Source: Bdellovibrionales bacterium
GTDB taxonomy: Bacteria; Bdellovibrionota; Bdellovibrionia; Bdellovibrionales; JAKFYE01
Length of the DNA: 64,000 nucleotides
Assembly (NCBI GenBank): GCA_021731045.1
Contig: JAKFYE010000026.1
Span: 32,027-96,026, forward strand
Direction of reading: 5' to 3'
Shown: positions 6,006 to 61,765 of the stretch, one piece after another
How the letters are laid out: every line of letters starts with the position of its first letter
How positions within the stretch are numbered: position 1 is the first letter of the stretch
The notes under the pieces: model-generated
What the model was told of the DNA's origin: nothing
The model's database searches: none
Seen by the model: the letters and a program-made list of their open reading frames with translations, nothing else
Translations under genes and position numbers: made by a program

Positions 6006-6085
6006 AAAAACCCTCTGACCTTTTTTTCTGGTTATATATTGTTATTTGTCTTGGTATAGCCAGAAAAAAAGGTCAGAGGGTTTTT
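6006..6085. repeat. 31-bp inverted repeat (long hairpin) immediately 5' of the 6102 RBS
   Basis: AAAAACCCTCTGACCTTTTTTTCTGGTTATA / TATAGCCAGAAAAAAAGGTCAGAGGGTTTTT with one G-U-type mismatch and an 18-nt loop. Confidence 0.9.
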
Positions 6086-19507: not shown

Positions 19508-19533
19508 CCAAAAGGTAGTAGGCACCTTTTGGC
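19508..19533 (+). terminator. Hairpin downstream of ychF
   Basis: GCCAAAAGGT-AGTAGGC-ACCTTTTGGC stem-loop. Confidence 0.45.
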
Positions 19534-29712: not shown

Positions 29713-30489
29713 GTGATAATGAAGAATTTTTTTGAAAAGCCAACTGAAAAACTCTTTAATCTAAAAGAGCTGGACAAAGAGACGCTGCTGTTTCGAGTGA
29801 TGCCTCGTTTAATGATGGAAATCACCCGCAAATATTTTCGCATGCAAGTTGAAGGCACCGAAAATTTACCGCGACGCGGTCGCGCCATTATCATTCCTAA
29901 TCACTCAGGATATTCGGGCTTTGATGCTGTTTTACTCGCGCACGAAATTCATAAAGCCACAAAAAGAATTGCACGCGTACTCGCGCATCATCTTTGGTTC
30001 GTAAGTCCCGCAACCGCGATCCCCGCCCGTAAAATGGGTTTTGAAGAAGCGACGACGGCAAATGGTCTCAGTCTACTTAAAAAAAATCAGATGATTATTT
30101 TGTTTCCTGAAGGTGAATATGGAAACTTTAAACCCACAGCAAAAGCTTACCGCCTGCAAGAGTTCAAACGCGGCTTTGTGCGTATGGCACTCGCGACTCA
30201 AACGCCAATTATACCAACAATTATTATTGGCGCCGAAGAGACACACATTAATTTACGACAATTAAAGTTTGCAAAATATTTAATCGGAAGCGTTTTACCA
30301 TTACCGCTTAACATTATACCGCTACCCGCAAAATGGAAAATTCGTTTTCTCGAGCCCATTTATTTACCGTACAAACCGAGCGCCGTAAACGATCCCGAGC
30401 TTGTTCACGAAATCGCACAGGATATTCAAGAGCGCATGCAAAAAGCAATTTCCACGGAACTTAATAAACGTGGAACTATTTTTTTCTAG
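29713..30489 (+). CDS. Lysophospholipid/glycerol acyltransferase (PlsC superfamily)
   Basis: NHSG..FD (HxxxxD), FPEG, GFVRMAL, PIIP. Confidence 0.88.
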   Translation: MIMKNFFEKPTEKLFNLKELDKETLLFRVMPRLMMEITRKYFRMQVEGTENLPRRGRAIIIPNHSGYSGFDAVLLAHEIHKATKRIARVLAHHLWFVSPATAIPARKMGFEEATTANGLSLLKKNQMIILFPEGEYGNFKPTAKAYRLQEFKRGFVRMALATQTPIIPTIIIGAEETHINLRQLKFAKYLIGSVLPLPLNIIPLPAKWKIRFLEPIYLPYKPSAVNDPELVHEIAQDIQERMQKAISTELNKRGTIFF

Positions 30490-30757
30490 AGCCGATCTTG
30501 CTCTGTTGAAATCGTTTCTACATTAAGAGCCTGTAGGGCTTTCAATATGTCTTCTGACTCTAATTGCTTTCGGCCGCAGGCGCGTCTTCGGATTGCGCTA
30601 CAATGGCCGATAGCAATTGGGAAAACAACTTACCAAATTACTTGTATCGCAACCCGGATACGCCCCGCACGACGCAAACTAGAGTCAGAAGACATATTGA
30701 AAGCCCTACAGGCTCTTAAACCTATGTTTGCAAATCAACAGAGCAAGATCGGCTCGA
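30487..30757. repeat. ~270-bp nested-hairpin repeat element, copy A
   Basis: Perfect 21-bp outer IR (30489-30509/30735-30755), perfect 40-bp inner IR (30523-30562/30680-30719), 117-nt core; second copy in inverted orientation at 46997-47268. Confidence 0.95.
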
Positions 30758-30764
30758 GAAAAAA

Positions 30765-30950
30765 TTACTTCGGAGTGTCGAGTGCGATGGTCGTCAGGAG
30801 GCCTCTCCAAACTTTAATTACTGAGCCCGGCTCATTGGTACGGCCGACGAGTCCACCAACGATTGAAAATGCAATCGTGATTAAAATAATCAGGAGTAAA
30901 ACGTACTCCACCATAACTTGGCCTTTTTGATTGCGAATCGTCTTAGACAT
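30765..30950 (-). CDS. Flp/TadE-type (class III signal peptide) small pilin-like protein
   Basis: KGQ|VMVEYVLLL: G-1 cleavage site with E+5 and Y+6, then a hydrophobic helix; 61 aa. Confidence 0.8.
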   Translation of the reverse strand: MSKTIRNQKGQVMVEYVLLLIILITIAFSIVGGLVGRTNEPGSVIKVWRGLLTTIALDTPK

Positions 30951-31031
30951 AAAATCGTATCGGATAGAAACATTGGGTAAGTTAGATTCTGAGCTTAGAC
31001 CTTGGCTTTTGGCCAGTCCATCAGAAGCAAA

Positions 31032-31694
31032 TTAAACACGCAAAGGTTCTGTGGCTATTCGGATGACAGTGTCAGTAAAAGCTTGAGCCGCATGCTCGCA
31101 ATCGCGAAGGCTACCTGAGAGAAGGGCGCCGCCAAAGTTGGTTTCGGTTGGAGGACCATAAAATTTTGCGAGATCTACACTTGCGGCTTTCATGGCGGCA
31201 TCAATGCCCACCATAGCTTCCATCGGGCACGCGATCAAATAGGCCAGCGCACTGCCGACTGGGACATCTGCCACTTTTGAAAGGTAATTCCCTACACTCG
31301 CAACGACATGCGGAAAGAAATTTACTTTTTGTTCCGGCATCACCGTATAAAACCATGCGTCTTTCTCGAGCGAAGTTTCAATCGCGCTTAAACCATCCGC
31401 AACCTCAGATGGGTCACGACCCGAAATAATTCCGATCGCTTCGCCTGAAAATGGGCCGCTCGCATGTGAGCTACCTGCATAAAAAGATTTTGCGTACACC
31501 ACATCGATCGGAGATTGTTTTGTCGCCTCGTCGAGCGCAACAAATAAAGCATCATCCATATCGCAAGTCACTAAACCTAAACTCACATGATGGGCGTGAC
31601 GAATTCCGTATTGCTTGGCCAGTGCGGGGGTAATTTGGTGAATCACTTGGCGACTTAAAATTTTAGGTTTTAATGGCGTTATGTCCATTCGCAA
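31032..31694 (-). CDS. eutL: Ethanolamine utilization microcompartment shell protein EutL (BMC-T)
   Basis: SLGLVT.D.DD..FVALDEATK, VYAKSFYAG, SGEAIGI, PPTETNFGGALLSG; follows eutC. Confidence 0.93.
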   Translation of the reverse strand: MRMDITPLKPKILSRQVIHQITPALAKQYGIRHAHHVSLGLVTCDMDDALFVALDEATKQSPIDVVYAKSFYAGSSHASGPFSGEAIGIISGRDPSEVADGLSAIETSLEKDAWFYTVMPEQKVNFFPHVVASVGNYLSKVADVPVGSALAYLIACPMEAMVGIDAAMKAASVDLAKFYGPPTETNFGGALLSGSLRDCEHAAQAFTDTVIRIATEPLRV

Positions 31695-31703
31695 CTCCTC
31701 AAA

Positions 31704-32597
31704 TTACAATTTAAGTTCGATGCCACTACAATCTTGCTCAAACATTTTTTTTACCATCGAAACGGTGAGCTTTGCCGCTTCAGTAGGTTTTATTCCCGTA
31801 TTATGAATATTCGAGATCATACTTTTTTTTGCATTCACTGCGCCCACCTTCGGACCATAGATCATGTAATTTGAAAGCGAATCACCCGAACCCAAACCCG
31901 GCCGTTCACCTAATAAGATAAGACTGACCTTCGCGCCCACCGTCTCACCAATAATATCTTGAATTGCAATGCGAGAATACTTGACGCAAAAAATAGTTCC
32001 TACGGTCATGCCCTCAGCCCGAAATAAATTGAGAAGCTCATCGACCATCGGCTTTGCGTATTTCTCGGTCGCCCACGCGCTTAATCCATCGGCTACGGTA
32101 ATTTGAACTTGTGGCGATTTGATTCCTTTTTCTTGAACGGTTTGTAAACTTGCTGGCGCCAGTTGTCGGCCCAAATCAGGTCGCAATAAAAATTCCTCTT
32201 TATCTTTGGCCAACGTTTGCAACGGAATCCATCCAAAATTTTCGGCAAACCCCGGTTTGATTTCGGCATACACCGCATCTTTGGCGATCGCATGATCTCC
32301 GCGAAGTTTTAACATCACACTCGTTAAATATCGTGTGCCAGCACGCCACACACCAAATCGTGCCGGCGTGGTGGCTAACATTTTTGATAACTCCAAAGGC
32401 TTTTGCGGAGAGGGAATCAGACTTGTCGATTCGCCTTTTACATCTTGCGCTTGCACGAGCCGTTTCACTATCGTGCTGACAATCGATTCGCTGTCCGTTT
32501 TTTCAGACACCGGTCGGCCTAACCAGCGACTGATGTTATCTTGCGCTTGCTTGCGACTGCGTTCTCTTAATTGTTGAAGTTCTGTATTTTGGTTCAT
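31704..32597 (-). CDS. eutC: Ethanolamine ammonia-lyase light chain
   Basis: TPAR, DHAIAKDAV, LLRPDLGR, ADGLS, GERPGL; ATG overlaps the eutB stop (ATGA). Confidence 0.95.
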   Translation of the reverse strand: MNQNTELQQLRERSRKQAQDNISRWLGRPVSEKTDSESIVSTIVKRLVQAQDVKGESTSLIPSPQKPLELSKMLATTPARFGVWRAGTRYLTSVMLKLRGDHAIAKDAVYAEIKPGFAENFGWIPLQTLAKDKEEFLLRPDLGRQLAPASLQTVQEKGIKSPQVQITVADGLSAWATEKYAKPMVDELLNLFRAEGMTVGTIFCVKYSRIAIQDIIGETVGAKVSLILLGERPGLGSGDSLSNYMIYGPKVGAVNAKKSMISNIHNTGIKPTEAAKLTVSMVKKMFEQDCSGIELKL

Positions 32598-33955
32598 GAG
32601 AAAATTGTGGGATCTCCTGCTTTTGCGGTTAATCGACCATTGTGCCAAAGACCCATGCGCTCCATCCACTTTTCAAATTCGGGAGTTGGTTTGTAATTAA
32701 AAACAGTTCTCAGCGAAGCGTTGTCATGAAAACTTGTCGACTGATAATTCAACATCACATCGTCACCCATTGGTAAACTCATCAAATAATTCACCCCAGC
32801 GGCTGCCAGCAAAATCGCTAAATCCTCTTGATCATTTTGATCGGCGACGGCGTGATTGGTATAGCAGTCATCGCAGCCCATGCTAATTCCTGAAAGTTTT
32901 CCCATAAAATGATCTTCGAGACCTGCACGAATAATTTGTTTAGCATCATATAAATATTCAGGGCCGATAAAACCCACGACGGAATTCACCAAAAATGGTT
33001 TGTATCTGCGGGCGAGCGCATACGCGCGGGCCTCCATCGTCAATTGATCGGCACCGTGATGACCGTTGGCACTGAGCGCGGTCCCCTCACCGGTTTCAAA
33101 ATACATCACGTTGGGGCCTTTGGCCGAACCTTTTTTGAGAGTCATGTCGTAAGCTTCATCTAAAAGTTTAATGGTCACACCAAATTCGGCATTTGTGATT
33201 TCACTGCCCGCAATACTTTGAAACATTAAATCTAGAGGCGCGCCTTTTTCTAGTGCACGCATTTGCGTGACCAAATGGGCGAGCACGCAGTTTTGCGTAG
33301 GAATACGATATTTATTCATCAACTCTTTTGTGGCCGAAAGAATTTCGTAGCAACTTTCGACTCGATCTGTTGACGGATTAATTCCTAAAACCGCATCGCC
33401 CGTTCCGTAAGAAAACCCTTCTTTCGCCCCGCTAATAATGCCTTCGACATTATCGGTGGGATGATTCGTTTGGAGTCGCGAAGAAATTCGCCCTTCAAGC
33501 CCTACGGTGGAATTGCAATGTACCACCACGCGAATTTTTTTAGCCGCCACGATCAAATCCATATTCGACATGCATTTCGCGACGGCCGAAATCGCTTCGG
33601 GAGTGAGGCCCGGTGAAATTTTTAAGACGTCGTCTCCTGAAGTCGTATCTTGCAAAAGCCATTCTCGTAGCTGAGAAACCGTCCAATTTTTTGTTTTTGC
33701 AAATGCGTCTTTATCGAGGGAATCAATCGCGAGTCGCGTGATCTCGTCGATTTCGTATGGCACAACCGGATTTTCAAATAATTCATGCAGGGTGACTTCA
33801 GAAAGTAAAATTTTAGCGACGACGCGCTGGCGTGTATTTTCGGCTGCTATGCCGGCCATTTGATCTCCCGACTTCAGCTCATTGGCTTTTGCGAGAAGAT
33901 CTTTTAGACTTTTAAAGTTGTAAGAGGCGCCCCACATTTGCGTCGACAATCGCAT
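32594..33955 (-). CDS. eutB: Ethanolamine ammonia-lyase heavy chain
   Basis: LLAKAN..SGD, RLQTNHPTD, GDAVLGINP, YFETG, NSVVGFIGPEYLYD; 453 aa from ATG 33955. Confidence 0.97.
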   Translation of the reverse strand: MRLSTQMWGASYNFKSLKDLLAKANELKSGDQMAGIAAENTRQRVVAKILLSEVTLHELFENPVVPYEIDEITRLAIDSLDKDAFAKTKNWTVSQLREWLLQDTTSGDDVLKISPGLTPEAISAVAKCMSNMDLIVAAKKIRVVVHCNSTVGLEGRISSRLQTNHPTDNVEGIISGAKEGFSYGTGDAVLGINPSTDRVESCYEILSATKELMNKYRIPTQNCVLAHLVTQMRALEKGAPLDLMFQSIAGSEITNAEFGVTIKLLDEAYDMTLKKGSAKGPNVMYFETGEGTALSANGHHGADQLTMEARAYALARRYKPFLVNSVVGFIGPEYLYDAKQIIRAGLEDHFMGKLSGISMGCDDCYTNHAVADQNDQEDLAILLAAAGVNYLMSLPMGDDVMLNYQSTSFHDNASLRTVFNYKPTPEFEKWMERMGLWHNGRLTAKAGDPTIFS

Positions 33956-34010
33956 CCCGAAAGTCTCTCTAAGTCCGCTCTCAAGTGTCAAGACAATGCA
34001 TCGCACCAGC

Positions 34011-34267
34011 TCGTCATCCTGAGCGAGCATCGTCATCCTGAGCGAGCATCGTCATCCTGAGCGAGCATCGTCATCCTGAGCGAGCATCGTCATCCTGAGC
34101 GAGCATCGTCATCCTGAGCGAGCATCGTCATCCTGAGCGAGCATCGTCATTCTGAGCGAGCATCGTCATCCTGAGCGCAGCATCGTCATCCTGAGCGAGC
34201 ATCGTCATCCTGAGCGAGCATCGTCATCCTGAGCGAGCATCGTCATCCTGAGCGCAGCGAAGGATCT
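34011..34267. repeat. Tandem array of 13 copies of a 19-bp REP-like unit TCGTCATCCTGAGCGAGCA
   Basis: 12 near-identical units (unit 8 has C>T, unit 9 has a 1-nt insertion) plus a final complete palindrome GTCATCCTGAGCGCAGCGAAGGATCT; no spacers. Confidence 0.97.
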
Positions 34268-34387
34268 CGTCGTCTTCTGGAAGAGCCAGTTTGTAAATGG
34301 AGCGAGTGCGGTTAGCCTTCCACTTATCCCCTTCAATGTTTCAAAACAGGACTGCTGAATTGAATCCAAGATGGGAGAGCTAAATAA

Positions 34388-34519
34388 CTACAAAAGCTTA
34401 TAAAGTTTCATCGCAATTTCGACCAATCCCAACAAATTCTTTAGAATCAAAGACCACAGACCAATCTCCTCTAAAGTTTGCCGCAATCGGAACCGATATT
34501 TCTTATGTCTGTCGGACAT
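34388..34519 (-). CDS. Small 43-aa basic/amphipathic peptide, candidate type I toxin
   Basis: Below the ORF-track cutoff. MSDRHKKYRFRLRQTLEEIGLWSLILKNLLGLVEIAMKLYKLL*; AAGGAGG SD inside a CCTCCT-GAAA-AGGAGG hairpin (34524-34539). Confidence 0.6.
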   Translation of the reverse strand: MSDRHKKYRFRLRQTLEEIGLWSLILKNLLGLVEIAMKLYKLL

Positions 34520-34553
34520 AAAACCTCCTTTTCAGGAGGGGACTAAAGCTTCG

Positions 34554-34581
34554 GGCCGCGTAACCGCGGCCTTTTTCTTTT
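34554..34581 (+). terminator. Orphan Rho-independent terminator (candidate antisense-RNA 3' end)
   Basis: GGCCGCG-TAAC-CGCGGCC followed by TTTTTCTTTT; no + strand CDS upstream of it. Confidence 0.75.
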
Positions 34582-35013
34582 CAAATTAGAGACCGGGATT
34601 AGAAGCAATCAAAGTCGTCGAAAGATTAAAACTTCCGAGACTCGAGTGAGAGTCTCATTGAAATACGATCGTAGAAGTCACAGGCATGTGGAAAGGGTAA
34701 TCGCATAGTGCGAAAACCTTCTTTGCCTGAATCTTTCCGAGCGCAAGAGCGACCATTTTCATTTAAATTCGATACAAGGATTGAGCCCGCCATTGTCACT
34801 TCTTAACGGCCGGATCTAACTAACTCTCAGTCTGCGCTGGACTAATTTTCGTACCGTTGAGTTTAAGGGCAAAAAAGCTATTCCTTGAAATTCAACTCAC
34901 GAAGTGAGAGGTTGATCTCAATGAAATCAGCCACATAATTGGTGTTCGTGCCGTATTCGGGTTGGTCCACGATGGTTAGGCCGATACAAAATTTGAAAGG
35001 AATGAACATTTCT

Positions 35014-35514
35014 ATGAAAAAACATTTATTTTTAATTGTTAGCGCCCTTGTTGTAAGCGGCGTAGCCCAAGCGGGCCAAGCTCCTCAATTTGGTGACATC
35101 GTCAGAAACTCCGATGGAAGTATCCTTTATATGAGCCAATTCGATGCCGTCGACTATTGCGCCAACCAGGGCATGCACCTGCCAAGTGCAAGGGAATTGG
35201 CTCAGTTGTCACAAAGCCTTGGAGCTCGAGGGATTAAAGAAGACTACGAATTTCCTGGGCCTGCCGCCTATTATAACCCTGGGTATATTCCTGTTAACGG
35301 AAAAAATTCAGATGGCAAAATCGACAGTTTTTATTTCGACTTCCATGGTTATAACCGCCCTGCAGGCGACCTTGGTAATAATTGGTTTTGGTCGTCGTCG
35401 GTCAACCGTTATTATATAGGCGACGCTTTCATTCTCGATGGTCGCGACGGTGACGTCTTTCGCTTCCCACAAAGTGTCAGCCACGTTGCGGTTCGCTGCG
35501 TAGCCGGCCAATAG
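35014..35514 (+). CDS. Secreted DUF1566/Lcl-C (C-type-lectin-like fold) protein
   Basis: Signal peptide MKKHLFLIVSALVVSGVAQA; A..YC..G.HLPS..EL, WFWSSS and terminal AVRCV motifs. Confidence 0.8.
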   Translation: MKKHLFLIVSALVVSGVAQAGQAPQFGDIVRNSDGSILYMSQFDAVDYCANQGMHLPSARELAQLSQSLGARGIKEDYEFPGPAAYYNPGYIPVNGKNSDGKIDSFYFDFHGYNRPAGDLGNNWFWSSSVNRYYIGDAFILDGRDGDVFRFPQSVSHVAVRCVAGQ

Positions 35515-35777
35515 TCAGCTTAACAGCACGCTAGCCCTTTTTTGTTTTGAATGTATGGTTGTGGGCTAAAACGAATCTCTGAGACCGTGACCAAAACCAC
35601 TGGATATACGTGCACGAGTCTGGCCGTGAAAGCGCTGACGTTATTGTCAGGGGCAATCCGTCAATTTCTTTACCGTCATGCCTTTGCCATTTCCATATGC
35701 CTGTGACTAATGCCTATAGGACTTTTGCCAATCACTTTTTTTGCATTCTTTCCTAGAAATCCTAACTCAAGCGGCTC

Positions 35778-36188
35778 TCAAGCTTCCGCAAAGAGAGGGC
35801 GTGATGTCGGAGCTGCGCTATCAAATATCTCTTCCACGCGTGAGATGATGTGCTGGAGAGACGACGACGTCCAAACGGGTCCGCAAATTGCGACCACCGG
35901 AGATTCTCCGACGAGAGTGTCAGCAAATGTCGCGGTTGTATTAAAGTGTTCCGCAAACGTTTGTTCATCTGGATACATTAAAACAAAAAGTGCGCGGTCT
36001 TGAGTGCTGCCAGAGCGAGGAGGGCGAATTTTTTCACCCAACACTTCGTGCAATTCAAAATACATTCTTAAAGCCTCGGCCTCTTGGCTTTGGGCAAAAT
36101 ACAAACGAAACGGCCCATCAAAAATCGCCATATTAAAAATCGGCAGGAAGTACTTCGACTGAATCAGTAGGCTTGTTGCTGTTCCCAT
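35778..36188 (-). CDS. Hypothetical protein
   Basis: AGGAG RBS before ATG 36188; SKYF..FN.AIFDGPFRLYFAQ looks like a conserved globular segment; family not recognised. Confidence 0.7.
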   Translation of the reverse strand: MGTATSLLIQSKYFLPIFNMAIFDGPFRLYFAQSQEAEALRMYFELHEVLGEKIRPPRSGSTQDRALFVLMYPDEQTFAEHFNTTATFADTLVGESPVVAICGPVWTSSSLQHIISRVEEIFDSAAPTSRPLFAEA

Positions 36189-36288
36189 GTTGTGGTCTCC
36201 TGATGAATTCTGCACACTCAAAGCAAACCACGGATATTTTTTAGAAATCAAACAAATAATTTAAGATTTTTTAAGATTGTTGAATCTT

Positions 36289-37524: not shown

Positions 37525-37537
37525 GCATTACCTCAAA

Positions 37538-39187: not shown

Positions 39188-39201
39188 TTTTTACCTAATG
39201 C

Positions 39202-40731
39202 CTAAACTTCAAGTTGACCGATTGTGTTTTCAATCGTTTTTGTAATTTCGCTTGAACGTATGAGTTGGCGAATTTTTTCTATGTCTAACGAAAACACGCG
39301 ATCGCTTTCAGCAAACGGAACATGTTTTCGAATCAAATCATAAGCAGATTTTACGGCGGAGCTGGCCTGATGAGGTTTTAATAAATCTAAGGCCTGCGCG
39401 GCACACAGTAATTCCATCGCCACTACGCTCTCACTGTTTTTTATCACTTGCCCAAGTTTTCGCGCGGCAATCGTTCCCATACTCACGTGATCTTCTTTAT
39501 CTGCAGAAGTCGGAATAGAATCAACGCTGGCAGGATGAGTTAAAATTTTATTTTCACTCACCAGAGATGCCGCCGCTACTTGCACGATCATCATTCCCGA
39601 ATTCAAGCCACCTTTCGGCGCCAAAAACGCAGGTAAACCACTCATCGCCGGATTTATTAATTTTTCAATACGACATTCTGACATATTGGTTGCTGCGGCC
39701 ATCGCAATTGCGAGAAAATCCAAAGTAAAAGCGACGGGCTCGCCGTGAAAATTTCCGCAAGATAAAATCTTTCCTTCTTTGGCAAACACGAGCGGATTAT
39801 CTGTTGAAGAATTGGCTTCAACTTCAAGCACGCGTAAGGAATTATTCAAAACATCTTTTGCGGCTCCATGCACGGCGGGAATACAACGAAGTGAATAGGC
39901 ATCTTGCACGCGATCACAATCCGCATGACTTTCAGAAATTCCAGATGTCTCACCTAAAAGTTTGAGCATGTTGCGGGCCGTTTTAGCTTCGCCCGGATGC
40001 GGGCGTGTCGCCGCGATCAATGGATCAAACGCACTTCGTGTTCCGCGCATACCTTCCATCGACATGGCTCCAGCTAAATCCATCAACCACAAAAGTCGCC
40101 GGGCTTCGTACGCATTTAAAAGCCCCACAGCCGTCATCACTTGGCAGCCATTAATTAAACTTAAACCTTCTTTTGCTTTTAAAACTAAAGGCGAAATCCC
40201 TTTTTTAGAAATCACATCGCTGACCGGCACGTGCTCTTCGCCTTGCCAAACAAATCCTTCGCCAATAAGAGCCAAGGCCAAATGCGCAAGGGGAGCTAAA
40301 TCTCCACTCGCGCCCACGCTCCCCTGCGAGGGAATAACCGGTATGATGTCGCCGTTCAAAAATTCGAGAATTTTTTCGATAACTTCAACACGAATCCCTG
40401 AATGTCCACGCGCCAAAGCATTTGCGCGTAAAAACATAATCGCGCGCGTCTCTTCACGCGTAAAAGGCGTACCCACGCCCGCGGAGTGAGAGCGAATCAA
40501 ATTCACCTGCAACTCTTCGATTTCATTTTGCGAAATTCGCACGCTCGAAAAAGCGCCGAAGCCGGTATTCACTCCATAAATGACTTCGCCGGCCTGCATT
40601 TTCTTTTCTATAAATTCACGCGAGGTTTTTACTTTAACGACAGAATCTTTACTTAAAGACACGCTTTCTTTTTGCCATGCAACGGCCCATACGCTTTCAA
40701 GCGTTACGTTTTCACCGGTCAATTGAATCAT
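39202..40731 (-). CDS. hutH: Histidine ammonia-lyase
   Basis: YGVNTGFG, GSVGASGDLAPL (MIO ASG), QDAYSLRC, EDHVSM. Confidence 0.98.
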   Translation of the reverse strand: MIQLTGENVTLESVWAVAWQKESVSLSKDSVVKVKTSREFIEKKMQAGEVIYGVNTGFGAFSSVRISQNEIEELQVNLIRSHSAGVGTPFTREETRAIMFLRANALARGHSGIRVEVIEKILEFLNGDIIPVIPSQGSVGASGDLAPLAHLALALIGEGFVWQGEEHVPVSDVISKKGISPLVLKAKEGLSLINGCQVMTAVGLLNAYEARRLLWLMDLAGAMSMEGMRGTRSAFDPLIAATRPHPGEAKTARNMLKLLGETSGISESHADCDRVQDAYSLRCIPAVHGAAKDVLNNSLRVLEVEANSSTDNPLVFAKEGKILSCGNFHGEPVAFTLDFLAIAMAAATNMSECRIEKLINPAMSGLPAFLAPKGGLNSGMMIVQVAAASLVSENKILTHPASVDSIPTSADKEDHVSMGTIAARKLGQVIKNSESVVAMELLCAAQALDLLKPHQASSAVKSAYDLIRKHVPFAESDRVFSLDIEKIRQLIRSSEITKTIENTIGQLEV

Positions 40732-41417
40732 GAAACTTCCTTTTCGCCTGCGAATTTTAATGCGCGAATGGCTTTGGCATAATCATTTCGAAAAATATAG
40801 CTACCGGCGACCAAAACATTTGCGCCGGCCTCAATACAACTTTTAGCCGTCACATCGTCTATGCCGCCATCGACTTCGATATATATAGGGCGCTTCAAAG
40901 TTTCGACTTCTTTTTTAATCGTTTTTATTTTTTGAAGTTGTTCCGGCATAAAACTTTGCCCGCCAAAACCAGGATTCACCGTCATAACTAAAACTAAATC
41001 CACAAGATTCAAATACGGCAACACCACTTCAACCGGAGTGACCGGTCGTAGGGTAATTCCTGGGATGATTCCGGCATTGCGAATCGTACTTAGCACTTCG
41101 TGCGGGACAACGGTTGATTCCACATGAATTGTGATGGAGTTACAGCCGGCTTTAATAAAATCATTTATATATTTTTCGGGTTTATCGATCATCAGGTGGA
41201 CATCTAAATGGGCATTGGTCGACTTGCGAAGGCTCGCCACGACGGGCGCCCCAATCGTAATGTTCGGAACAAAATGTCCATCCATCACGTCGACATGAAT
41301 CCAATCGGCACCGGCGGCCAGAACAGAATTGATCTCACGCTGTAAATTTGCGAAGTCCGCTGAAAGAATACTCGGCGCAACTAGAACTTTTGGCACTTTC
41401 AACCCCCGAGAACTCAC
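40728..41417 (-). CDS. rpe: Ribulose-phosphate 3-epimerase
   Basis: APSILSADF, HVDVMDGHFVPN, MTVNPGFGGQ, VDGGI. Confidence 0.97.
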   Translation of the reverse strand: MSSRGLKVPKVLVAPSILSADFANLQREINSVLAAGADWIHVDVMDGHFVPNITIGAPVVASLRKSTNAHLDVHLMIDKPEKYINDFIKAGCNSITIHVESTVVPHEVLSTIRNAGIIPGITLRPVTPVEVVLPYLNLVDLVLVMTVNPGFGGQSFMPEQLQKIKTIKKEVETLKRPIYIEVDGGIDDVTAKSCIEAGANVLVAGSYIFRNDYAKAIRALKFAGEKEVS

Positions 41418-41432
41418 CTAAATCTGTAAGAT

Positions 41433-42374
41433 TTAACTACCCAACTTTTCACTTAGTTTTAGATGATACCCTCGGACATAGTCAGCTACTTTCATCGCCG
41501 CACGCGATTCGGGCTGCACTTCGGTAATTCGTAACACGCCATTTCCACAACTCACGTCAAAATAATCGCTTTTTAAGTCAATAATCTTACCGGGAGAACC
41601 TCCGCCATCTTCGAGAGGGGTCGCCGAAATAACTTTAAGAATTTTACCTTCGCGCAACGTCCAAACACCCGGCCAGCTTTTTAATCCCCGTAACTGATTA
41701 AAAATTTGGCGCGCGCTTAAACTCCAATTAATGAGACCTTCTTCCTTGCGAATTTTTTTAGCGATTGTTTTTAAAGATTCATCTTGGGGAACAGCGATTA
41801 AATTGCCCCGAATATAATCCATAAACTCAACTTTTAAAAGTTCACGGCTTTTCTGTTTCAGAATGTCGTAGAGTTGAATAATATCGAGGTCATCGGTCAA
41901 TGCGATTTTTCTTACGCCTAAAACTGGTCCCGCATCCAGCTTGGAGACAATCACTTGCAAGGCCACACCGGTTTCAACATCTCCAGCCATCAGAGCTCGT
42001 TGCATAGGGGCCGCTCCTCGCCAGCGAGGTAACAAACTTGAATGAACATTTACTGGTGGATGCACAAAAATTTCGAGAAATTCAGGTTTAAGTATTTGTC
42101 CAAAAGCCACGACCACAGCCGAGTCGACTTGCAAACTGCGAATTTCATTTAAGACAGATTCATCATTAATATTTTCAACATTCTGAACATCTAATCCCAG
42201 TCTTAAGGCTTCAGCTTTTACGGGGGTCGGTTGAACTTTTAAATTTCGCCCCGACGGCTTATCTGGCTGTGTATAGACGCGTACAATTTTAAAATGAGGA
42301 TCTTCTGCAAGGGCCGTAAGGGGCGTTACTGCAAAATCAGGAGTGCCAAGATAAATAATGCGAACAACGCTCAC
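41433..42374 (-). CDS. fmt: Methionyl-tRNA formyltransferase
   Basis: GTPDFA, TQPDKP, NVHSSLLPRWRGAAP, LDAG. Confidence 0.97.
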   Translation of the reverse strand: MSVVRIIYLGTPDFAVTPLTALAEDPHFKIVRVYTQPDKPSGRNLKVQPTPVKAEALRLGLDVQNVENINDESVLNEIRSLQVDSAVVVAFGQILKPEFLEIFVHPPVNVHSSLLPRWRGAAPMQRALMAGDVETGVALQVIVSKLDAGPVLGVRKIALTDDLDIIQLYDILKQKSRELLKVEFMDYIRGNLIAVPQDESLKTIAKKIRKEEGLINWSLSARQIFNQLRGLKSWPGVWTLREGKILKVISATPLEDGGGSPGKIIDLKSDYFDVSCGNGVLRITEVQPESRAAMKVADYVRGYHLKLSEKLGS

Positions 42375-42955
42375 AGCGCAGACTGGCTCTCGTCTTCAGA
42401 CGTGTTATCTGCGTAGCCATGTTTTTTAATTTTAGATTTGATTCGATCTGATTTTACAAAACTAATACGATCGATAAAAAGTTTCCCTTCAAGATGGTCC
42501 ATTTCATGTTGCAAACAGATCGCCAATAAACCATCGGTTTTAATCGTCTGCGGGTTGCCTTCGATATCTAAACCTTGCGCTTCAATATAATTGGCGCGTT
42601 TTACTTCTTCGATAAAACCCGGCACGCTGAGGCAGCCTTCTTCGTAAGTTGTCGCGCCGTCCTTGACCACAATTTCTGGATTAAAAATTACAACCGGATA
42701 TTTTACTTTTCGCTCTAATTCGGTCATTTTTTCTTCAACAACTTGATCATCATCGTCCGTTGGACGCGTATCAATCACAAGTAATCGCACTAACTCGCCT
42801 ACCTGTACGGCCGCCAACCCAACTCCAGGAGCCGCATACATCGTCTCCAACATGTTTTCGGCCAACTGCCGAAGTTCAGGAGTGACTTTCTTAACGGCAA
42901 CAGACTTTTTCTTAAGTCGAGCGTCTGGATATTTAAGGATTTCTAAAGTCGCCAT
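42371..42955 (-). CDS. def: Peptide deformylase
   Basis: GVGLAAVQ, EGCLSVP, QHEMDH. Confidence 0.98.
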   Translation of the reverse strand: MATLEILKYPDARLKKKSVAVKKVTPELRQLAENMLETMYAAPGVGLAAVQVGELVRLLVIDTRPTDDDDQVVEEKMTELERKVKYPVVIFNPEIVVKDGATTYEEGCLSVPGFIEEVKRANYIEAQGLDIEGNPQTIKTDGLLAICLQHEMDHLEGKLFIDRISFVKSDRIKSKIKKHGYADNTSEDESQSAL

Positions 42956-43082
42956 ACATACAAGTATAGTCGAAAACCAAAATTTAGGCCAGACCCTAAA
43001 CGTTGGGACCCATTTAAAACGACTTAAAGGCCCAGTTTTTTAGCTCAGACGCAAGGCCTAAACACCTTAACTAAAATCACTT

Positions 43083-43204
43083 GGGTCTGTTGAAAAAGCC
43101 CATCTTCCTCATCCGCGCTGTCGTCAGTCACTCTGTCGTACAGTAAGTACGCCGCCGCTCCCTCCTCGGCACATCTAAGGAATCTGAACCTTTTTGAACA
43201 GACC
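43083..43204. repeat. MITE-like element with GGGTCTGTT(G/C)AAAAAG termini
   Basis: 16-bp terminal IR (1 mismatch), internal CGTAC..GTACG hairpin; a third partial arm at ~43221-43240. Confidence 0.75.
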
Positions 43205-43241
43205 CTACTTTTACATGCCTTGGCTTTTTCAACAAGCCCAC

Positions 43242-44321
43242 TTATTTCTTTTGTCGAATCAGGAGAAAAATAGACGCCGTGATCATAAGAATATTGGGTG
43301 CCCAAGCCGCCAAAATAGGGGGAATCGTTCCATGTTTTCCTATGGTCAACGCCGAGCTATAGAGTGTCCAGTAGACAAACACGAGCAAAATCACAATCCC
43401 AATATTTGTCGCCATACCCCCTTGACGCGTATGTCGTGCACAAAATGGAATACCGATAAACGTCATGACAAACCCAGCAAAAGCAAAACTGATTTTGGAT
43501 TGGTAGTCGACTTCGTACTGTAGAGTATCAAAGCCCGCTTCCTTGTTTTTTACGATAAAGGATTTCAATTGACCCATCGTCATCACATCTGCCGAATTTG
43601 TGGATTGCTGAAGGTCAAACGTATCGGGCTCCATTTCGACTTCTTTGGTTTCAAAGCCTTGAGTCATCGGAAAGCTGGATTCTTCAGCAAAAAGAGTCAC
43701 GCTCCCTTTGTTCAAAAGCCAACTCCGTCCGTTAATTTTTAGATTTTCCGCCGAGATGGTCTGAACCAAATCCCATGCATCATTAAAATAGTAAAGTGAT
43801 AGCCCTTGAGCCGACGCACTTTCAGCATTTAAGGTTTTAATATTTAGAATAATGTTTTTTGCGCGATACCAGATTTTATTAGTTTTTACCGTTGAATAGA
43901 GTCCTGGTTTTTTTTGAATATCAACATAATAAACGTAATTTTTTTTCTGATTTAAAGCCGGCAATAACCAGTCTCCGATGGTTAATAAAAAAATCGACAT
44001 GCAAATCACAATCACGAGAATCGGAGCGCTGATGCGGGCTAAGCTTGTACCCATAGAGAACAACGCGGTTAATTCATTTGAGCGATTCATTCCACTTAAC
44101 GTAAAAACAGTCGCGATCAAACACGCAACGGGCATCATTTGATGAATAATAGCCGGCAATGAATAGGCATAATAGGCAATGACTGTTCCCATCGTAACGT
44201 CGAACTTTAAAATCGTCGTCATCGCATCGATGGCGATGAAAAGCGTTGCGACCACGATGATACTGCCCAAAAAGTAGCTAACAAAGAGTTTGGTAATGTA
44301 ACGATCGATAATGTTTAACAC
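43242..44321 (-). CDS. lptG: LPS export ABC transporter permease LptG (LptF/G family)
   Basis: IIDRYI, SNELTALFSMGTS, 3 TM + periplasmic domain + 3 TM, AAWAPN. Confidence 0.85.
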   Translation of the reverse strand: MLNIIDRYITKLFVSYFLGSIIVVATLFIAIDAMTTILKFDVTMGTVIAYYAYSLPAIIHQMMPVACLIATVFTLSGMNRSNELTALFSMGTSLARISAPILVIVICMSIFLLTIGDWLLPALNQKKNYVYYVDIQKKPGLYSTVKTNKIWYRAKNIILNIKTLNAESASAQGLSLYYFNDAWDLVQTISAENLKINGRSWLLNKGSVTLFAEESSFPMTQGFETKEVEMEPDTFDLQQSTNSADVMTMGQLKSFIVKNKEAGFDTLQYEVDYQSKISFAFAGFVMTFIGIPFCARHTRQGGMATNIGIVILLVFVYWTLYSSALTIGKHGTIPPILAAWAPNILMITASIFLLIRQKK

Positions 44322-44383
44322 GTCATTTAAATTTAGCAGAACCCCCTCTTGACTCCAAAGGGGAAAGACAGTTTACTCGAGGC

Positions 44384-45442
44384 ATGGCATTGCGCGTCTT
44401 ACTGGCGGATAATAGCGAAACTATTAAAAAAGTCATTCAGCTCTCTCTCCAAGATTACGCTGCCCAAGTGCGTTCGGTGAATATCGGCATCGATGTTATC
44501 GACGTAGCCAAGTCTTTTCAGCCCGACATTATTTTTGCCGACATTCTTTTACAAAAACGCAATGGTTACGATGTCTGTAACGACATAAAAAATACGCCCG
44601 AACTTTCTAAAACTCCGGTGGTGCTCATTTGGAGCGGGTTTATGGATTTAGATCAAAAAAAATACACCCAAGTCAGAGCCGATGCCGCGTTAGAAAAGCC
44701 TTTTGATTCCAACGATCTTCGCGCGCTCATTACGAAGTTGGTACCAAAAGTAAAAGACCAATCTCTTTCGGAGTTTATCGAGACTCCCACTTTTGCAAAA
44801 TCAGAATATAAAATTGAACCGCCCGTGTTAGAAACGTCACCTTCTCCCGCAACACCCACCGCGGCTTCTTTACCAAAAAAAGATTGGAACATGGATGCCT
44901 TCGAAGACATCAACAACTTCAAAATGGTAGACGATAAGAAAAAACTTCCGGATCTTCCTTTGCCATCTGAGAGTGAAGATGACTTTGCGCAAGTGCCTTT
45001 AAATAAAGTCTCTCTGCCTTCCGAAGACTCGACCAACCCTTCCAACAAGCAGGCCGTCATGAGTAAAAAGACAAATGAATTTGAACTAGATGTTCCTGAA
45101 GAGGCCGATTTTGATGGCGTGACCGTAAACATTGTTATTCCACAAGATGATATTACCAATACTGATTTTCTTAGAAGTAAACTCCCTCCTCCGACTAAAG
45201 CCGCAACTCCTGAACCTGCGAAACCAGCTTCAACTCCCGCACCTAAAGCCGCAGAAGCACCTAAGCCCGCAGCCACCGCAAGCCCGGCTCCCATGTCTGA
45301 AGATCAACTTGAACTTATATTACGAAACTACTCTCGAGAGATCATAGAAAAAATTGTCTGGAAGCTTGTCCCCGATATGGCAGAACGAATCATTCGTGAA
45401 GAAATAAAACGTTTGATCGATGAGCCTGAAATGAAGGCTTAA
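44384..45442 (+). CDS. romR: RomR-like polarity response regulator
   Basis: N-terminal receiver, long Pro/acidic low-complexity linker, C-terminal SREIIEKIVWKLVPDMAERIIREEI helix typical of RomR. Confidence 0.85.
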   Translation: MALRVLLADNSETIKKVIQLSLQDYAAQVRSVNIGIDVIDVAKSFQPDIIFADILLQKRNGYDVCNDIKNTPELSKTPVVLIWSGFMDLDQKKYTQVRADAALEKPFDSNDLRALITKLVPKVKDQSLSEFIETPTFAKSEYKIEPPVLETSPSPATPTAASLPKKDWNMDAFEDINNFKMVDDKKKLPDLPLPSESEDDFAQVPLNKVSLPSEDSTNPSNKQAVMSKKTNEFELDVPEEADFDGVTVNIVIPQDDITNTDFLRSKLPPPTKAATPEPAKPASTPAPKAAEAPKPAATASPAPMSEDQLELILRNYSREIIEKIVWKLVPDMAERIIREEIKRLIDEPEMKA

Positions 45443-45444
45443 CT

Positions 45445-46275
45445 ATGTCACCAATGTCTCTGCGAGACATTATTCAATATGCCCTTAAAGAGGATATGCC
45501 CAAAGGCGACGTCACCACCGAGTCTCTCGCCCTGGATTCGCGACCTGGCATTGCAAAATTAACGGCAAAAGAAGATCTCGTTTTATCCGTACACAATGTG
45601 TTTGAAGAAACAATTCAAATCCTTGAACCCTCCGCTAAGCTTAAATGGTATTTTAAAGATACCGATGTCGTCCTTAAAGGTCAGCAGATGTGTTTAATAC
45701 AGGGAGACCTCATTCAAGTCTTAAAAGCTGAACGTGTCGCCTTAAATTTATTTAGTCATCTCTGCGGCATCGCCACGCTCACGCGCTGTTTTGTGAATCA
45801 AATAAAAAACACGCAAACAAAAATTTTAGATACACGTAAAACCACACCTATTTTTCGCGATCTCGAAAGACGCGCCGTTCGCGATGGCGGCGGAACCAAC
45901 CACCGTCTAAATTTGAGCGACGCCGTTATGATCAAAGACAATCATATTCGCGCGGCCGGAAGCATCACCAACGCGATTCAACGAATTCGCAAAAACACGA
46001 AACTTCCAATTACAGTTGAAGTCAGTACGCTTCAAGAAGTCAAAGAAGCCGTAGCCTGTACTGCGCAAAGAATTTTACTCGACAATATGAATACAGAGAC
46101 TATGAAACAGGCGCTCGAAATTATTCCAAAAACTATTGAAACCGAAGCCAGCGGCAACATGACGATCGAACGTGTTCGTGAAGTTGCGCAGCTCGGAGTT
46201 AATTATATTAGCGTTGGTCTCATCACGCACTCAGCTCCGAGTGCTGATATGAGCTTGATGTTTGAGTGGACATAG
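45445..46275 (+). CDS. nadC: Quinolinate phosphoribosyltransferase
   Basis: GDVTT, ERVALN, DTRKTTP, HRLNLSD, IKDNH, LLDN, EASG. Confidence 0.97.
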   Translation: MSPMSLRDIIQYALKEDMPKGDVTTESLALDSRPGIAKLTAKEDLVLSVHNVFEETIQILEPSAKLKWYFKDTDVVLKGQQMCLIQGDLIQVLKAERVALNLFSHLCGIATLTRCFVNQIKNTQTKILDTRKTTPIFRDLERRAVRDGGGTNHRLNLSDAVMIKDNHIRAAGSITNAIQRIRKNTKLPITVEVSTLQEVKEAVACTAQRILLDNMNTETMKQALEIIPKTIETEASGNMTIERVREVAQLGVNYISVGLITHSAPSADMSLMFEWT

Positions 46276-46276
46276 C

Positions 46277-46999
46277 ATGTCCGAAACAAATCTCATCGGT
46301 GAATGGACAAAGTCTTGGGCCGAAAAAAATAATCTTCATTGCGAATATCAATTCGAAACTCCCAGTACAAATGACTTTGCAAAAGAATATCCCTACGTCG
46401 ATGACACGAGCGTCCTCTTTGTGACCGAATCTCAAACAAAAGGTCGCGGTCGCGGCTCCAACTTGTGGTTGAACTCTAAACCCGGCTCATCACTGCTTTC
46501 CACATGGAGTTTTCAACTCACTCAACCTCCACAACCGATTACCACGCCGCTCTTAGGCCTTGCCGTCTACCGTTCTCTACGTTCGGCTTTTGGAATTCAA
46601 AAACTCAGTCTCAAAGCTCCAAACGATATTTACATTGACGGAAAAAAAGCCGGTGGCCTACTCGTCGAAGTCATCAGTCAAAATTCTTCGCATCGTGTGT
46701 TAGTTGGCTTTGGGCTTAATATTTTTTCTAAACCCGAAATCGCCAACACCAGCGAAGTGAACTCCTACTCTTCAGAGCCTATCAATAGCAGCAGTTGGAA
46801 TTTATTTTTAAGCATGCTGTTTGATGAATTCCAACGTGCCGTTCACCAAGCAACGGAACCTTACCTCCCGCAACTCGCCCGCGAAGAACTACTCGTCGCC
46901 CTCAACCAAAATCCAAACATCTCCGAAAAATTCGTTGCCATCGAACTCAACGGCAGCCTCCGAACCAAAAACACCACAATTTCTTGGGACACCCTGTAG
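46277..46999 (+). CDS. birA: Biotin--protein ligase (group I, no HTH)
   Basis: STND, QTKGRGR, KAPND, KAGGLLVE, GFGLN. Confidence 0.9.
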   Translation: MSETNLIGEWTKSWAEKNNLHCEYQFETPSTNDFAKEYPYVDDTSVLFVTESQTKGRGRGSNLWLNSKPGSSLLSTWSFQLTQPPQPITTPLLGLAVYRSLRSAFGIQKLSLKAPNDIYIDGKKAGGLLVEVISQNSSHRVLVGFGLNIFSKPEIANTSEVNSYSSEPINSSSWNLFLSMLFDEFQRAVHQATEPYLPQLAREELLVALNQNPNISEKFVAIELNGSLRTKNTTISWDTL

Positions 47000-47268
47000 A
47001 ACCGATCTTGTTCTGTTGATTTATAAATCTTAGGTTTAAGAGCCTTGGGGATTTTCAATATATCCTCGCACTCTAGTTTGCGTCGTGCGGGGCGTATCCG
47101 GGTTGCGATGCAAGTAATTTGATATGTTATTTCCCCAATTGCTTTCGGCCATTGTAGCGCAATCCGAAGACGCGCCTGCGGCCGAAAGCAATTGGAGTGC
47201 GAGGATATATTGAAAATCCCCAAGGCTCTTAACGTAAAAAGTATTTCAACAGAACAAGCTCGGTTCTA
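46997..47268. repeat. ~270-bp nested-hairpin repeat element, copy B (inverted relative to copy A)
   Basis: 23-bp outer IR (46997-47019/47246-47268, 1 mismatch), 40-bp inner IR (47036-47075/47193-47232, 1 mismatch); core differs from copy A at 6 of 117 nt. Confidence 0.95.
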
Positions 47269-61590: not shown

Positions 61591-61765
61591 TCGCAACTTA
61601 GAATTTATATTTAAATCTCAAATATATCTTAAGCTGGGGGCTTCCTCCATGGTCGCATGAACGCACTTTCGCGCACGTCGTGTGCGCGAATGGACTGCGT
61701 CCACCGTGCGTTCAATCCCCATCTCAAGATATATTTGAGATTTAAATATAAATTCTAAGTTGCGA
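61591..61765. repeat. Palindromic element with perfect 40-bp AT-rich stem and branched GC-rich core
   Basis: 61591-61630 is the exact reverse complement of 61726-61765; core pairs TGAACGCAC/GTGCGTTCA, TTCGCGCAC/GTGCGCGAA and TGGAC/GTCCA. Confidence 0.93.

Follow-up and report, generated by a model that had tools for sequence, protein, structure and literature searches.

Two giant hairpins in a 64,000-nucleotide stretch of a Bdellovibrionales genome (this whole stretch is called the window) were found to belong to an uncatalogued family of dispersed, non-coding palindromic repeats of the Bdellovibrionales. In this family the core is conserved and the stem sequence is free, with pairing enforced. 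Our preferred reading is a non-autonomous repeat or mobile-like DNA element, and not a single-locus non-coding RNA gene. On balance, the elements are probably a repeat family comparable in general kind to REPINs, hairpin MITEs and TwoAYGGAY, made of two-layer hairpins with a tip and a base.

Two giant hairpins at gene ends

The original prediction placed two copies in opposite orientation at 30487-30757 and 46997-47268, and these coordinates were verified, with the core of copy A on the plus strand and that of copy B on the minus strand (Table 1). The palindromic bases of copy A run past the ends first given, to 30480-30764. Each copy begins, on the plus strand, at the TAG stop of the upstream gene, as had been noticed: the stop of the ORF at 29713-30489 is TAG 30487-30489, and that of the ORF at 46262-46999 is TAG 46997-46999. 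Because the core of copy B is reversed, this stop is on one side of the core in A and on the other in B. Both copies do sit between convergent ORFs, with gaps of 19 nt (copy B) and 275 nt (copy A) to the end of the minus-strand neighbour.

Both copies fold as single giant hairpins, with energies of −151.2 and −164 kcal/mol for the two strands of copy A (z about −18); none of 200 shuffles was as stable. All stem differences between A and B had been described as mirrored on the partner arm. This was true of the inner stem, where 9 mirrored and 0 unmirrored differences were counted over 38 aligned columns. Over the 23 columns of the outer stem, the 2 mirrored changes were recovered, but two single-arm differences had been overlooked, one mismatch being in copy A and one in copy B. 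The 117-nt core differs at 6 positions on the alignment, the number first reported.

Table 1. Positions in the window of the hairpins and of their parts
Feature	Position	Strand	Remarks
Copy A, whole hairpin	30480-30764	+ (core read on + strand)	MFE fold and hairpin bounds; G000:C10:62506-62790
Copy A, outer stem, 5' arm	30487-30509	+	partner 30735-30757
Copy A, outer stem, 3' arm	30735-30757	+	partner 30487-30509
Copy A, inner stem, 5' arm	30523-30562	+	40-bp perfect stem; bears the common chassis motif, CAATATGTCTTC type
Copy A, inner stem, 3' arm	30680-30719	+	
Copy A, conserved core, 117 nt	30563-30679	+	rod with invariant helix
Copy A, invariant helix, 5' strand	30583-30597	+	CGTCTTCGGATTGCG
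Copy A, invariant helix, 3' strand	30648-30662	+	CGCAACCCGGATACG
Copy B, whole hairpin	46997-47268	− (core read on − strand)	
Copy B, inner stem arm	47036-47073	−	38-bp perfect stem, partner 47195-47232; C10:79062-79258
Copy B, inner stem, other arm	47195-47232	−	
Copy B, conserved core	47074-47194	−	
Sister giant hairpin, core-2 (TwoAYGGAY-like)	61591-61765	.	40-bp perfect stem, same chassis motif; C10:93617-93791

Distribution and search for a mobilising enzyme

This genome (G000) contains 11 full sense copies. A covariance model gave 55 matches in a complete related genome, G288, antisense re-hits included, and 48 copies were located there; with the same model G313 had 9 matches, G246 had 8 and G238 had 4. 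Nine of the 26 genomes of one related family were positive, with uneven occurrence inside genera (3 of 13 genomes in one genus, 3 of 6 in another), and copies per genome ranged from 1 to 48. Of 384 genomes of the order, 6 contained the exact motif pair of the core and 0 contained the reversed pattern used as a control; the motif pair had no match in the sampled genomes outside Bdellovibrionales, and 0 in viral contigs. A looser core pattern retrieved 119 stretches, and when 100 of them (L029-L128) were screened with the covariance model, L036 and L127 were the sole matches.

The genes flanking the copies are unrelated housekeeping genes, and among the junctions compared no clear case was found of the same gene junction occupied in two genomes. 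In this genome 10 of 13 copies lie between convergent ORFs, with the base of the hairpin at or near both stop codons. For the 41 classifiable copies of G288, crude ORF calls gave 14 convergent, 17 tandem and 10 divergent settings. Such copy numbers, the patchiness within genera and the unshared junctions argue for a repeat or mobile-like DNA element rather than a single-locus RNA gene. The original prediction had offered a structured non-coding RNA or a non-autonomous mobile element; the second option is favoured by copy number, patchiness and the lack of a G.U signature (see below), and a single-locus RNA is disfavoured by the same observations. The claim that the element is absent from Rfam was confirmed, as nothing relevant was returned for the whole window at the gathering threshold, nor for the element with E values up to 10 (the only hits, at E of about 5, were to a flavivirus hairpin and to a lncRNA). 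Related loci had no Rfam match, and no description of this hairpin family, or of such repeats in Bdellovibrio, was found in the literature searched.

Among candidate classes, only Y1 HUH (RAYT/IS200-like) transposases are common to all positive genomes tested, and the link is weak. Y1_Tnp was found in 5 of 5 positive genomes, and was abundant in 2 of 5 core-negative genomes too. The Y1 ORFs of this genome and of G288 were assigned from genome-search matches alone. In G288, the outer arms of 8 of the 48 copies are identical in type to repeats flanking a Y1 ORF. A transposase gene flanked by the same core had been suggested as something to look for, and the Y1 ORFs of this genome (on contigs C26 and C19) are not such genes: they adjoin other repeats, with no core motif, and one of these repeats belongs to a separate multi-copy REP family without overlap with the hairpins. 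Next to the C19 gene, a sequence close to the 3' core half was put down to chance, as it lies within an ORF. The flanks of a subset of 4 Y1 loci from G313, G246 and G033 did not match the 26 elements of those genomes. RAYT association was therefore rejected for this genome and for the Y1 loci examined from the other three.

TnpB (PF07282) and the IS110 DEDD transposase (PF01548) were each detected in 0 of 5 positive genomes, while control genomes matched; this led us to reject both an IS200/IS605 derivative with a TnpB guide RNA and an IS110/IS1111 bridge-RNA element. Classical IS200/IS605-type strand-specific ssDNA transposition predicts a bias in core orientation. In the complete genome G288, 25 cores are on the plus and 23 on the minus strand, with no positional bias by eye, which counts against it. 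An integron attC site was also discarded: by eye, the conserved part is apical and not basal, and the R''/R' box consensus does not fit.

No autonomous long version was found in this genome, where a constant distance of about 65 nt separates the two core halves. Around the 48 copies of G288, no consistent direct repeat that would mark a target-site duplication was seen outside the stems, the flanks often extending the palindrome and masking the element ends. When an empty site was sought by comparison with the two genomes of the same family, one flanking protein was 41% identical with synteny lost, and the other flanking protein was not found. The sequencing runs listed as containing this stretch were four DNA runs of one drinking-water study, with no RNA run among them; their contigs, short and broken inside the repeat, gave no joint and no empty-site variant. 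Nor did any transposition event come to light.

Conserved cores on perfectly paired stems

Two folds had been proposed for the core, a local hairpin and an extended rod. Both exist, but only the rod is supported across the family, the local hairpin being limited to the copies of this genome, with weak covariation support. The rod has 27 pairs, 13 of them with compensatory changes, and 92.8% of its cells are paired, compared to 82.0% in shuffles. Its covariation score is 0.314 (0.135 in shuffles); none of the 500 shuffles attained this value, and the maximum in slid controls was 0.091. Between its covarying helices sits a central 14-bp helix that is invariant in sequence and retains C.U, U.G and A.C pairs; in the alignment of 19 copies its columns vary hardly or not at all. 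In the consensus rod the two YCGGAU segments of this core (core-1) pair with one another. The distal segment of the copy A core is confined to copies in this genome.

The basal stems, 35 to 100 bp long, have a sequence specific to each copy. Over 79 copies they comprise 3967 Watson-Crick pairs and 92 mismatches, and 42 of the 79 stems are perfect. When the six type-I copies are compared, 91 of their inner-stem differences have a mirror change on the other arm and 5 lack one. These mirrored changes, together with the family search, support the original prediction of a multi-copy element with a conserved core, whose stem sequence is free and whose pairing is enforced. Compensatory stem change is not undescribed as such: REPINs are likewise reported to preserve their hairpin by compensatory changes (PMC3116915). 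Among the 92 mismatches, 15 are G.T/T.G and 29 are A.C/C.A (p = 0.049, wobble-pair test for strand assignment). The stems thus lack the G.U signature of selection on RNA, which points to a palindrome kept at the DNA level rather than by RNA selection. One G288 copy has its apical hairpin in inverted orientation, and an empty 107-nt perfect hairpin of the same genome resembles a deletion derivative; both look like DNA-level palindrome events.

We propose that the tip, a rod of about 100 nt, would be the functional module; a trans-acting factor would read it in single-stranded form (ssDNA or RNA), which would place it under purifying selection. The base drifts freely in sequence while its Watson-Crick complementarity is maintained, in our view by a DNA-level process in which one arm may be copied from the other, e.g. 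by template switching or repair in an extruded hairpin, possibly at each duplication. New copies would arise through duplication or transposition of the hairpin. Should old copies carry intact cores, element-level selection alone would be insufficient as an explanation.

Like REPINs, these elements are multi-copy intergenic hairpins of two inverted arms for which alternative folds are discussed, and in G288 the REP-like outer arms of 8 of the 48 copies also flank a Y1 ORF. They differ in layout, since a REPIN has conserved ends (the REPs) and a variable spacer, whereas in the present family the conservation is at the centre and the variation at the ends: conserved inverted ends are absent from this genome and found only in the G288 subfamily of 8 out of 48. 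The present elements are also two to three times longer, and the two Y1 (RAYT-like) ORFs of this genome adjoin other repeats. TwoAYGGAY is described (10.64898/2026.09.22.753630) as a multi-copy conserved structured core with elongated basal stems, whose copy number differs between strains. The likeness lies in the many copies of a structured core on a long basal stem. Core-1, however, does not match the TwoAYGGAY model (RF01731) at the gathering threshold or at E up to 10, forms a single rod with mutually paired YCGGAU segments instead of two AYGGAY-loop hairpins on a common basal stem, and is confined to Bdellovibrionales among the genomes searched. Hairpin MITEs (Correia/NEMIS, ERIC/IRU, RUP) have conserved terminal inverted repeats, target-site duplications and a parent IS. 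Like these MITEs, the elements are small, non-coding and dispersed, fold end to end, lie at gene ends and often supply stop codons; their termini, in contrast, are conserved within subfamilies only and differ between copies, and no ORF-sized insert lies between the core halves in this genome.

Alternative cores and the origin of the two layers

At least three core types on a common hairpin chassis are present in this genome, which the original prediction had not foreseen. Its giant hairpins number at least 28, and one stem motif is common to 25 of 28 (background 3.9%). Of 10 core-2 loci searched against Rfam TwoAYGGAY (gathering score 43), 1 scored 46.6 bits and 3 others scored 35-42 bits. With three alternatives on the same stems, cores behave as exchangeable modules. 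In six or seven G288 copies the GGATAC helix strand is replaced by a 135-nt module (module X), the stems being perfect and diverged. Module X occupies one fixed core site, in elements with three kinds of arms; its Rfam match to a miRNA precursor is spurious and produced by the long hairpin.

It is rather unlikely that the core is a small structured RNA, stand-alone or in a 3' UTR and TwoAYGGAY-like in kind, with the long stems as vehicle or processing signals. GGA-loop hairpins bind CsrA, and under this hypothesis the two YCGGAU segments and the invariant helix might bind a protein, CsrA being one example of a GGA-binding regulator. Strong core covariation, strictly conserved non-canonical pairs, the TwoAYGGAY score of the sister core-2 and the position of most copies of this genome at the 3' ends of genes, places of likely read-through transcription, would all be accounted for; the presence of CsrA in 5 of 5 positive genomes does not tell the readings apart. 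However, Rfam has nothing relevant to core-1 even at E up to 10, both of its GGA motifs are paired together in the rod and not in loops, the core strand of the stems has no G.U excess (15 against 29 of the opposite type), and core orientation relative to the neighbouring genes varies. Moreover, the six or seven G288 copies that lack the GGATAC helix strand are still in perfect, diverged stems.

Two pairs of G288 neighbours, 807346 and 809270 (1.9 kb apart) and 772409 and 782257 (about 10 kb apart), each have in common a rare core variant and an inner stem of 18-21 bp. In both pairs homology ends abruptly past the inner stem, and the outer stems are unrelated and yet perfect palindromes. These unrelated outer stems speak against whole-hairpin copying and better suit a smaller unit entering existing palindromes. 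Such a mobile unit, made of the core and about 20 bp of inner stem, would insert site-specifically at the apex of pre-existing palindromes (REPINs, terminators, other hairpin repeats), the outer stems being those of the target. The 8 G288 copies within REP-like arms, found elsewhere alone or as an empty hairpin, agree with this, as does module X at its fixed site under three arm kinds, which would be a second nesting layer; the 86 perfect hairpins of at least 22 bp in this genome would offer many potential targets. We nevertheless hold apex insertion to be distinctly doubtful. The apical loop tracks arm type in G288, with mostly TGC loops on type-1 arms and TTTC loops on type-2 arms, which indicates that core and arms were duplicated together; the empty hairpin can equally be read as a microhomology deletion derivative, the type-I copies of this genome are homologous across both stems, and a pre-insertion site was not recovered.

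A further reading, quite unlikely as it stands, is that the stems are a self-perfecting palindromic DNA chassis carrying exchangeable conserved folded cores. One arm would be regenerated from the other by fold-back or template-switch copying, and the cargo would comprise the three core kinds of this genome (one of them TwoAYGGAY-like) and the nested module X of G288. Finally, that the hairpins are host bidirectional terminators or insulators between convergent genes, with an incidental conserved core, is highly improbable: it suits the prevalence of convergent stops in this genome, the A-runs and T-runs that bracket some copies (C13, C4, C9) and give a U-tract on both sides, and the Watson-Crick-only pairing that lets transcripts of both strands fold, but the convergent setting is that of a minority in G288 by the crude ORF calls, copy A has its T-run upstream and its A-run downstream, the wrong way round, and conservation of a 100-nt core across three bacterial families goes beyond what a terminator requires.

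Conserved cores on private, perfectly paired stems are also a feature of TwoAYGGAY in Pseudomonas (10.64898/2026.09.22.753630). If the stems were indeed a self-perfecting chassis, bacterial repeats would include some that propagate with a folded tip as the recognised part, the reverse of terminal-repeat transposons, and the unexplained TwoAYGGAY class would be linked to mobile hairpin DNA. The 14-bp invariant imperfect helix may serve as a bait for a binding partner, and the family is a clean test system, with a complete genome containing 48 copies and one genome with three cores on its chassis. If arms are copied from one another, as we propose, apparent covariation would be explained without RNA selection, and this would bear on every covariation-based search for new RNAs.

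Giant hairpins with private stems

The two hairpin copies of the original prediction were found where it had placed them, at 30487-30757 with the core on the + strand (copy A) and at 46997-47268 with the core on the - strand (copy B). Either strand of copy A folds as a single giant hairpin, at -151.2 and -164 kcal/mol (z ~ -18), and none of 200 dinucleotide shuffles was equally stable. A TAG stop does stand at the start of both elements on the + strand; since the core of copy B is reversed, the side of the core on which this shared stop is found differs between A and B. Downstream of copy A, a 220-aa ORF carries a BMC (bacterial microcompartment shell) domain (window 31032-31694, - strand, E = 1e-11).

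To count differences between A and B, the six closest copies were aligned jointly over both arms. The 9 inner stem differences had been described as mirrored on the partner arm, and indeed none was unmirrored over 38 columns. For the outer stem (23 columns) the 2 mirrored changes were recovered as well, but two single-arm mismatches, one per copy, had been overlooked. Over all 15 pairs of the six copies, mirrored differences outnumbered unmirrored ones 91 to 5 in the inner stem and 95 to 30 in the outer stem.

Pairing was then scored in 79 copies: in each, the 5′ arm was aligned to the reverse-complemented 3′ arm, and the 24 nt adjoining the core motifs were excluded. The stems contained 3967 Watson-Crick pairs and 92 mismatches, and were perfect over 35-76 bp in 42 of the copies. 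Mismatches included 15 G.T/T.G versus 29 A.C/C.A (p = 0.049), and G.U accounted for 0.4% of stem pairs. Far higher G.U contents are tolerated by structured RNAs, and the stems are therefore maintained as palindromes of DNA type, or else have to fold on both strands.

Divergence is much faster in stems than in cores: in G288, a related complete genome, cores are near-identical and stems mostly specific to a single copy. Three observations point to events at the DNA level within the palindromes. The apical hairpin of one G288 copy is inverted; a coreless 107-nt perfect hairpin with the same arms can be explained as a core-bearing copy that suffered a deletion at a short repeat; and in several copies of the window's genome the palindrome continues into flanks specific to the locus, and into the final codons of the genes on both sides. 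Copying from arm to arm may be at work in these stems.

The conserved rod at the tip

The part of the core conserved throughout the family is a rod, for which RNAalifold gives 27 pairs, 13 of them changed on both sides. Paired cells amount to 92.8% of the total, compared with 82.0% in shuffled alignments. At 0.314 versus 0.135, the covariation score was reached by 0 of 500 shuffles, and control structures slid by 1-3 columns scored at most 0.091. In the central helix, CGTCTTCGGATTGCG pairs with CGCAACCCGGATACG; its sequence is essentially invariant, and its C.U, U.G and A.C pairs are kept in 19 of 19 aligned copies. The folded tip may be what is recognised in these elements.

Distal to the central helix the sequence is free. 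This distal part takes the form of a 13-27-nt hairpin whose stems covary in four related genomes (G288, G313, G238 and G246), and of a long hairpin in a fifth (G033). In the window's genome it spans about 50 nt and contains a segment able to pair with the 5′ proximal strand, which gives a local hairpin. This local hairpin and the rod were the two core folds originally proposed. The rod is supported family-wide; the local hairpin is confined to copies of the window's genome, where compensatory changes in 2 of 14 pairs and a covariation score of 0.045 versus 0.031, reached by 5 of 500 shuffles, argue weakly for it.

Copy number, distribution and genomic context

The core (core-1) proved to be repeated genome-wide. 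BLAST together with R1, a covariance model built from 19 cores, detected 11 full copies in the window's genome (2.58 Mb, 47 contigs, 83.5% complete), and two or three truncated copies were found in addition. Copies fall into three subtypes, between which stems are barely alignable or unalignable, yet paired within each copy. Of 384 genomes of the order Bdellovibrionales, 6 contained the exact core-1 motif pair, a reversed control pattern giving no matches; among 401 genomes sampled across the phylum 3 were positive, each of them a member of the order. With R1, which is more sensitive than the motif pair, 9 of 26 genomes of a related family were positive (1 to 13 matches each), and occurrence was patchy within genera (3 of 13 genomes in one, 3 of 6 in another). 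G288 carries 48 copies in 3.33 Mb, split 25 (+) to 23 (-) between the strands, with no positional bias visible by eye. An R1 screen outside the order, on 100 of 119 chance-prone stretches from a loose first scan, yielded 2 matches, one of which is titled as a Bdellovibrionales MAG. Viral contigs gave no core-1 match, and a metagenome collection gave 11 contigs of the same architecture, 9 of them from one metagenome. Two irregular copies were also seen (Table): in one, two nested 5′ core halves precede a lone 3′ half; in the other, a truncated second 5′ half follows about 130 nt downstream.

Of 13 copies in the window's genome, 10 are flanked by convergent ORFs, and the hairpin base usually coincides with both stop codons or lies close to them. 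The adjacent genes are housekeeping genes unrelated to one another; among them are those of an acyltransferase, a BMC-domain protein, a biotin/lipoate ligase family protein, a GNAT acetyltransferase, a sigma-54 activator and heptosyltransferases. Crude stop-to-stop ORF calls in G288 placed 14 copies in convergent, 17 in tandem and 10 in divergent contexts, with 7 undetermined. A comparison of 85 loci from different genomes found a shared flanking homologue in only 14 locus pairs, and in the five pairs inspected no clear case of elements at the same junction in two genomes was found. Searches for empty sites, in two genomes of the same family and in contigs from four DNA runs, recovered none.

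Core modularity, partner enzymes and known repeats

In six G288 copies, a conserved 135-nt two-hairpin module replaces six core bases, the GGATAC part of the 3′ helix strand, always at one fixed site; a diverged seventh module-bearing copy adjoins a gene for a Y1 HUH transposase. Module-bearing copies have three different kinds of arms, and every copy has perfect, diverged stems; the module looks like a nested site-specific insertion. Rfam gave no meaningful match to it, and a search of four other positive genomes did not reveal it. Within each of two pairs of neighbouring G288 copies, 807346 and 809270 (1.9 kb apart) and 772409 and 782257 (about 10 kb apart), both members carry the same rare core variant and agree over about 20 bp of inner stem, but have outer stems that are perfect and bear no relation to each other.

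A scan of the window's genome for perfect hairpins of at least 22 bp returned 86, of which at least 28 are giant hairpins bearing one of three conserved cores: core-1 (12 copies, including one truncated), core-2 (78-81 nt, 13 copies on perfect private stems of 34-58 bp) and core-3 (38-39 nt, 3 copies on perfect stems of 32-47 bp ending in an A-run). They have a common chassis: a stem motif (RATAT..TY, typically TTCGAATATCTC) lies within 30 nt of the core in 25 of these 28, its background in random 30-mers being 3.9%. A BLAST search of 40 related genomes did not detect core-2. Compared with the Rfam family TwoAYGGAY (RF01731), 4 of 10 core-2 loci searched matched at E up to 0.01, and one exceeded the gathering score (46.6 bits versus 43). 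The core-3 copy on contig C1 directly adjoins a tRNA gene (Rfam tRNA match, L272:132-205). At least three further families of short perfect hairpins are visible in the scan. A perfect 26-bp hairpin with a 28-nt loop (window 6006-6085, G000:C10:38032-38111), A-rich before its arms and T-rich within them, is unrelated to the core families and may be a terminator.

Table. Location of elements and associated features (G, genome, G000 being that of the window; C, contig; L, fetched stretch)
Feature	Location	Remarks
Irregular core-1 copy	L152 (G294:C61:43-180)	contig end
Irregular core-1 copy	L156 (G313:C137)	
REP units beside Y1 ORF	G000:C26:21328-21357 and 22119-22148	L168
135-nt module	L263-L268 (G288)	e.g. 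L264:1501-1656
Core-2 copy	window 61591-61765 (G000:C10:93617-93791)	12 more loci in G000, e.g. L269-L271, L273-L279
Core-3 copy	G000:C3:22286-22417	
Core-3 copy	G000:C1:138261-138385	L272
Core-3 copy	G000:C40:12145-12247	

A structured RNA or a mobile element had been proposed at the outset; core-1 elements would be mobile, and may have an RNA role. No long version of core-1 with an ORF between the core halves was found in the window's genome. TnpB (PF07282) and the IS110 transposase (PF01548) were each detected in 0 of 5 positive genomes tested, and control genomes matched. Y1_Tnp (PF01797) was present in 5 of 5 core-positive genomes, and also in 2 of 5 core-negative ones (17 and 18 matches). 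A G288 Y1 ORF is flanked by REP-like arms, and the same arms form the outer stems of 8 core-bearing copies. The window's genome has its own, classical-looking REP/REPIN family, whose 30-nt unit occurs mostly as inverted doublets (short hairpins) with 1-9-nt loops and flanks a Y1_Tnp (RAYT-like) ORF as perfect inverted repeats. This family matches about 50 sites on more than 20 contigs (partial copy at window 19509-19531), none of which coincides with a giant hairpin. Flanks of four Y1 loci from G313, G246 and G033, a subset of the Y1 genes there, had nothing in common with the elements of those genomes. The link with Y1 is therefore real for one subfamily, that of G288, and unproven for the core-1 family as a whole.

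REPINs are hairpins of two inverted REPs in which compensatory changes are common, and are mobilised by RAYTs (Bertels and Rainey, PMC3116915). TwoAYGGAY elements occur in many copies: the median per genome is 11-23 in most Pseudomonas groups, and numbers reach 202. They have extended or elongated basal stems, and in SBW25 they occupy fixed positions relative to REP arrays (10.64898/2026.09.22.753630). The accessible part of that preprint assigns them no function. The core-1 family is the same sort of biology, yet does not qualify as a member of either named family, and our literature search found no publication on it. We conclude that core-1 elements are a real, statistically solid new family of a kind of bacterial repeat already known, which stands out by an imperfect helix, strictly conserved, at the tip of the hairpin and by Watson-Crick-only private stems.
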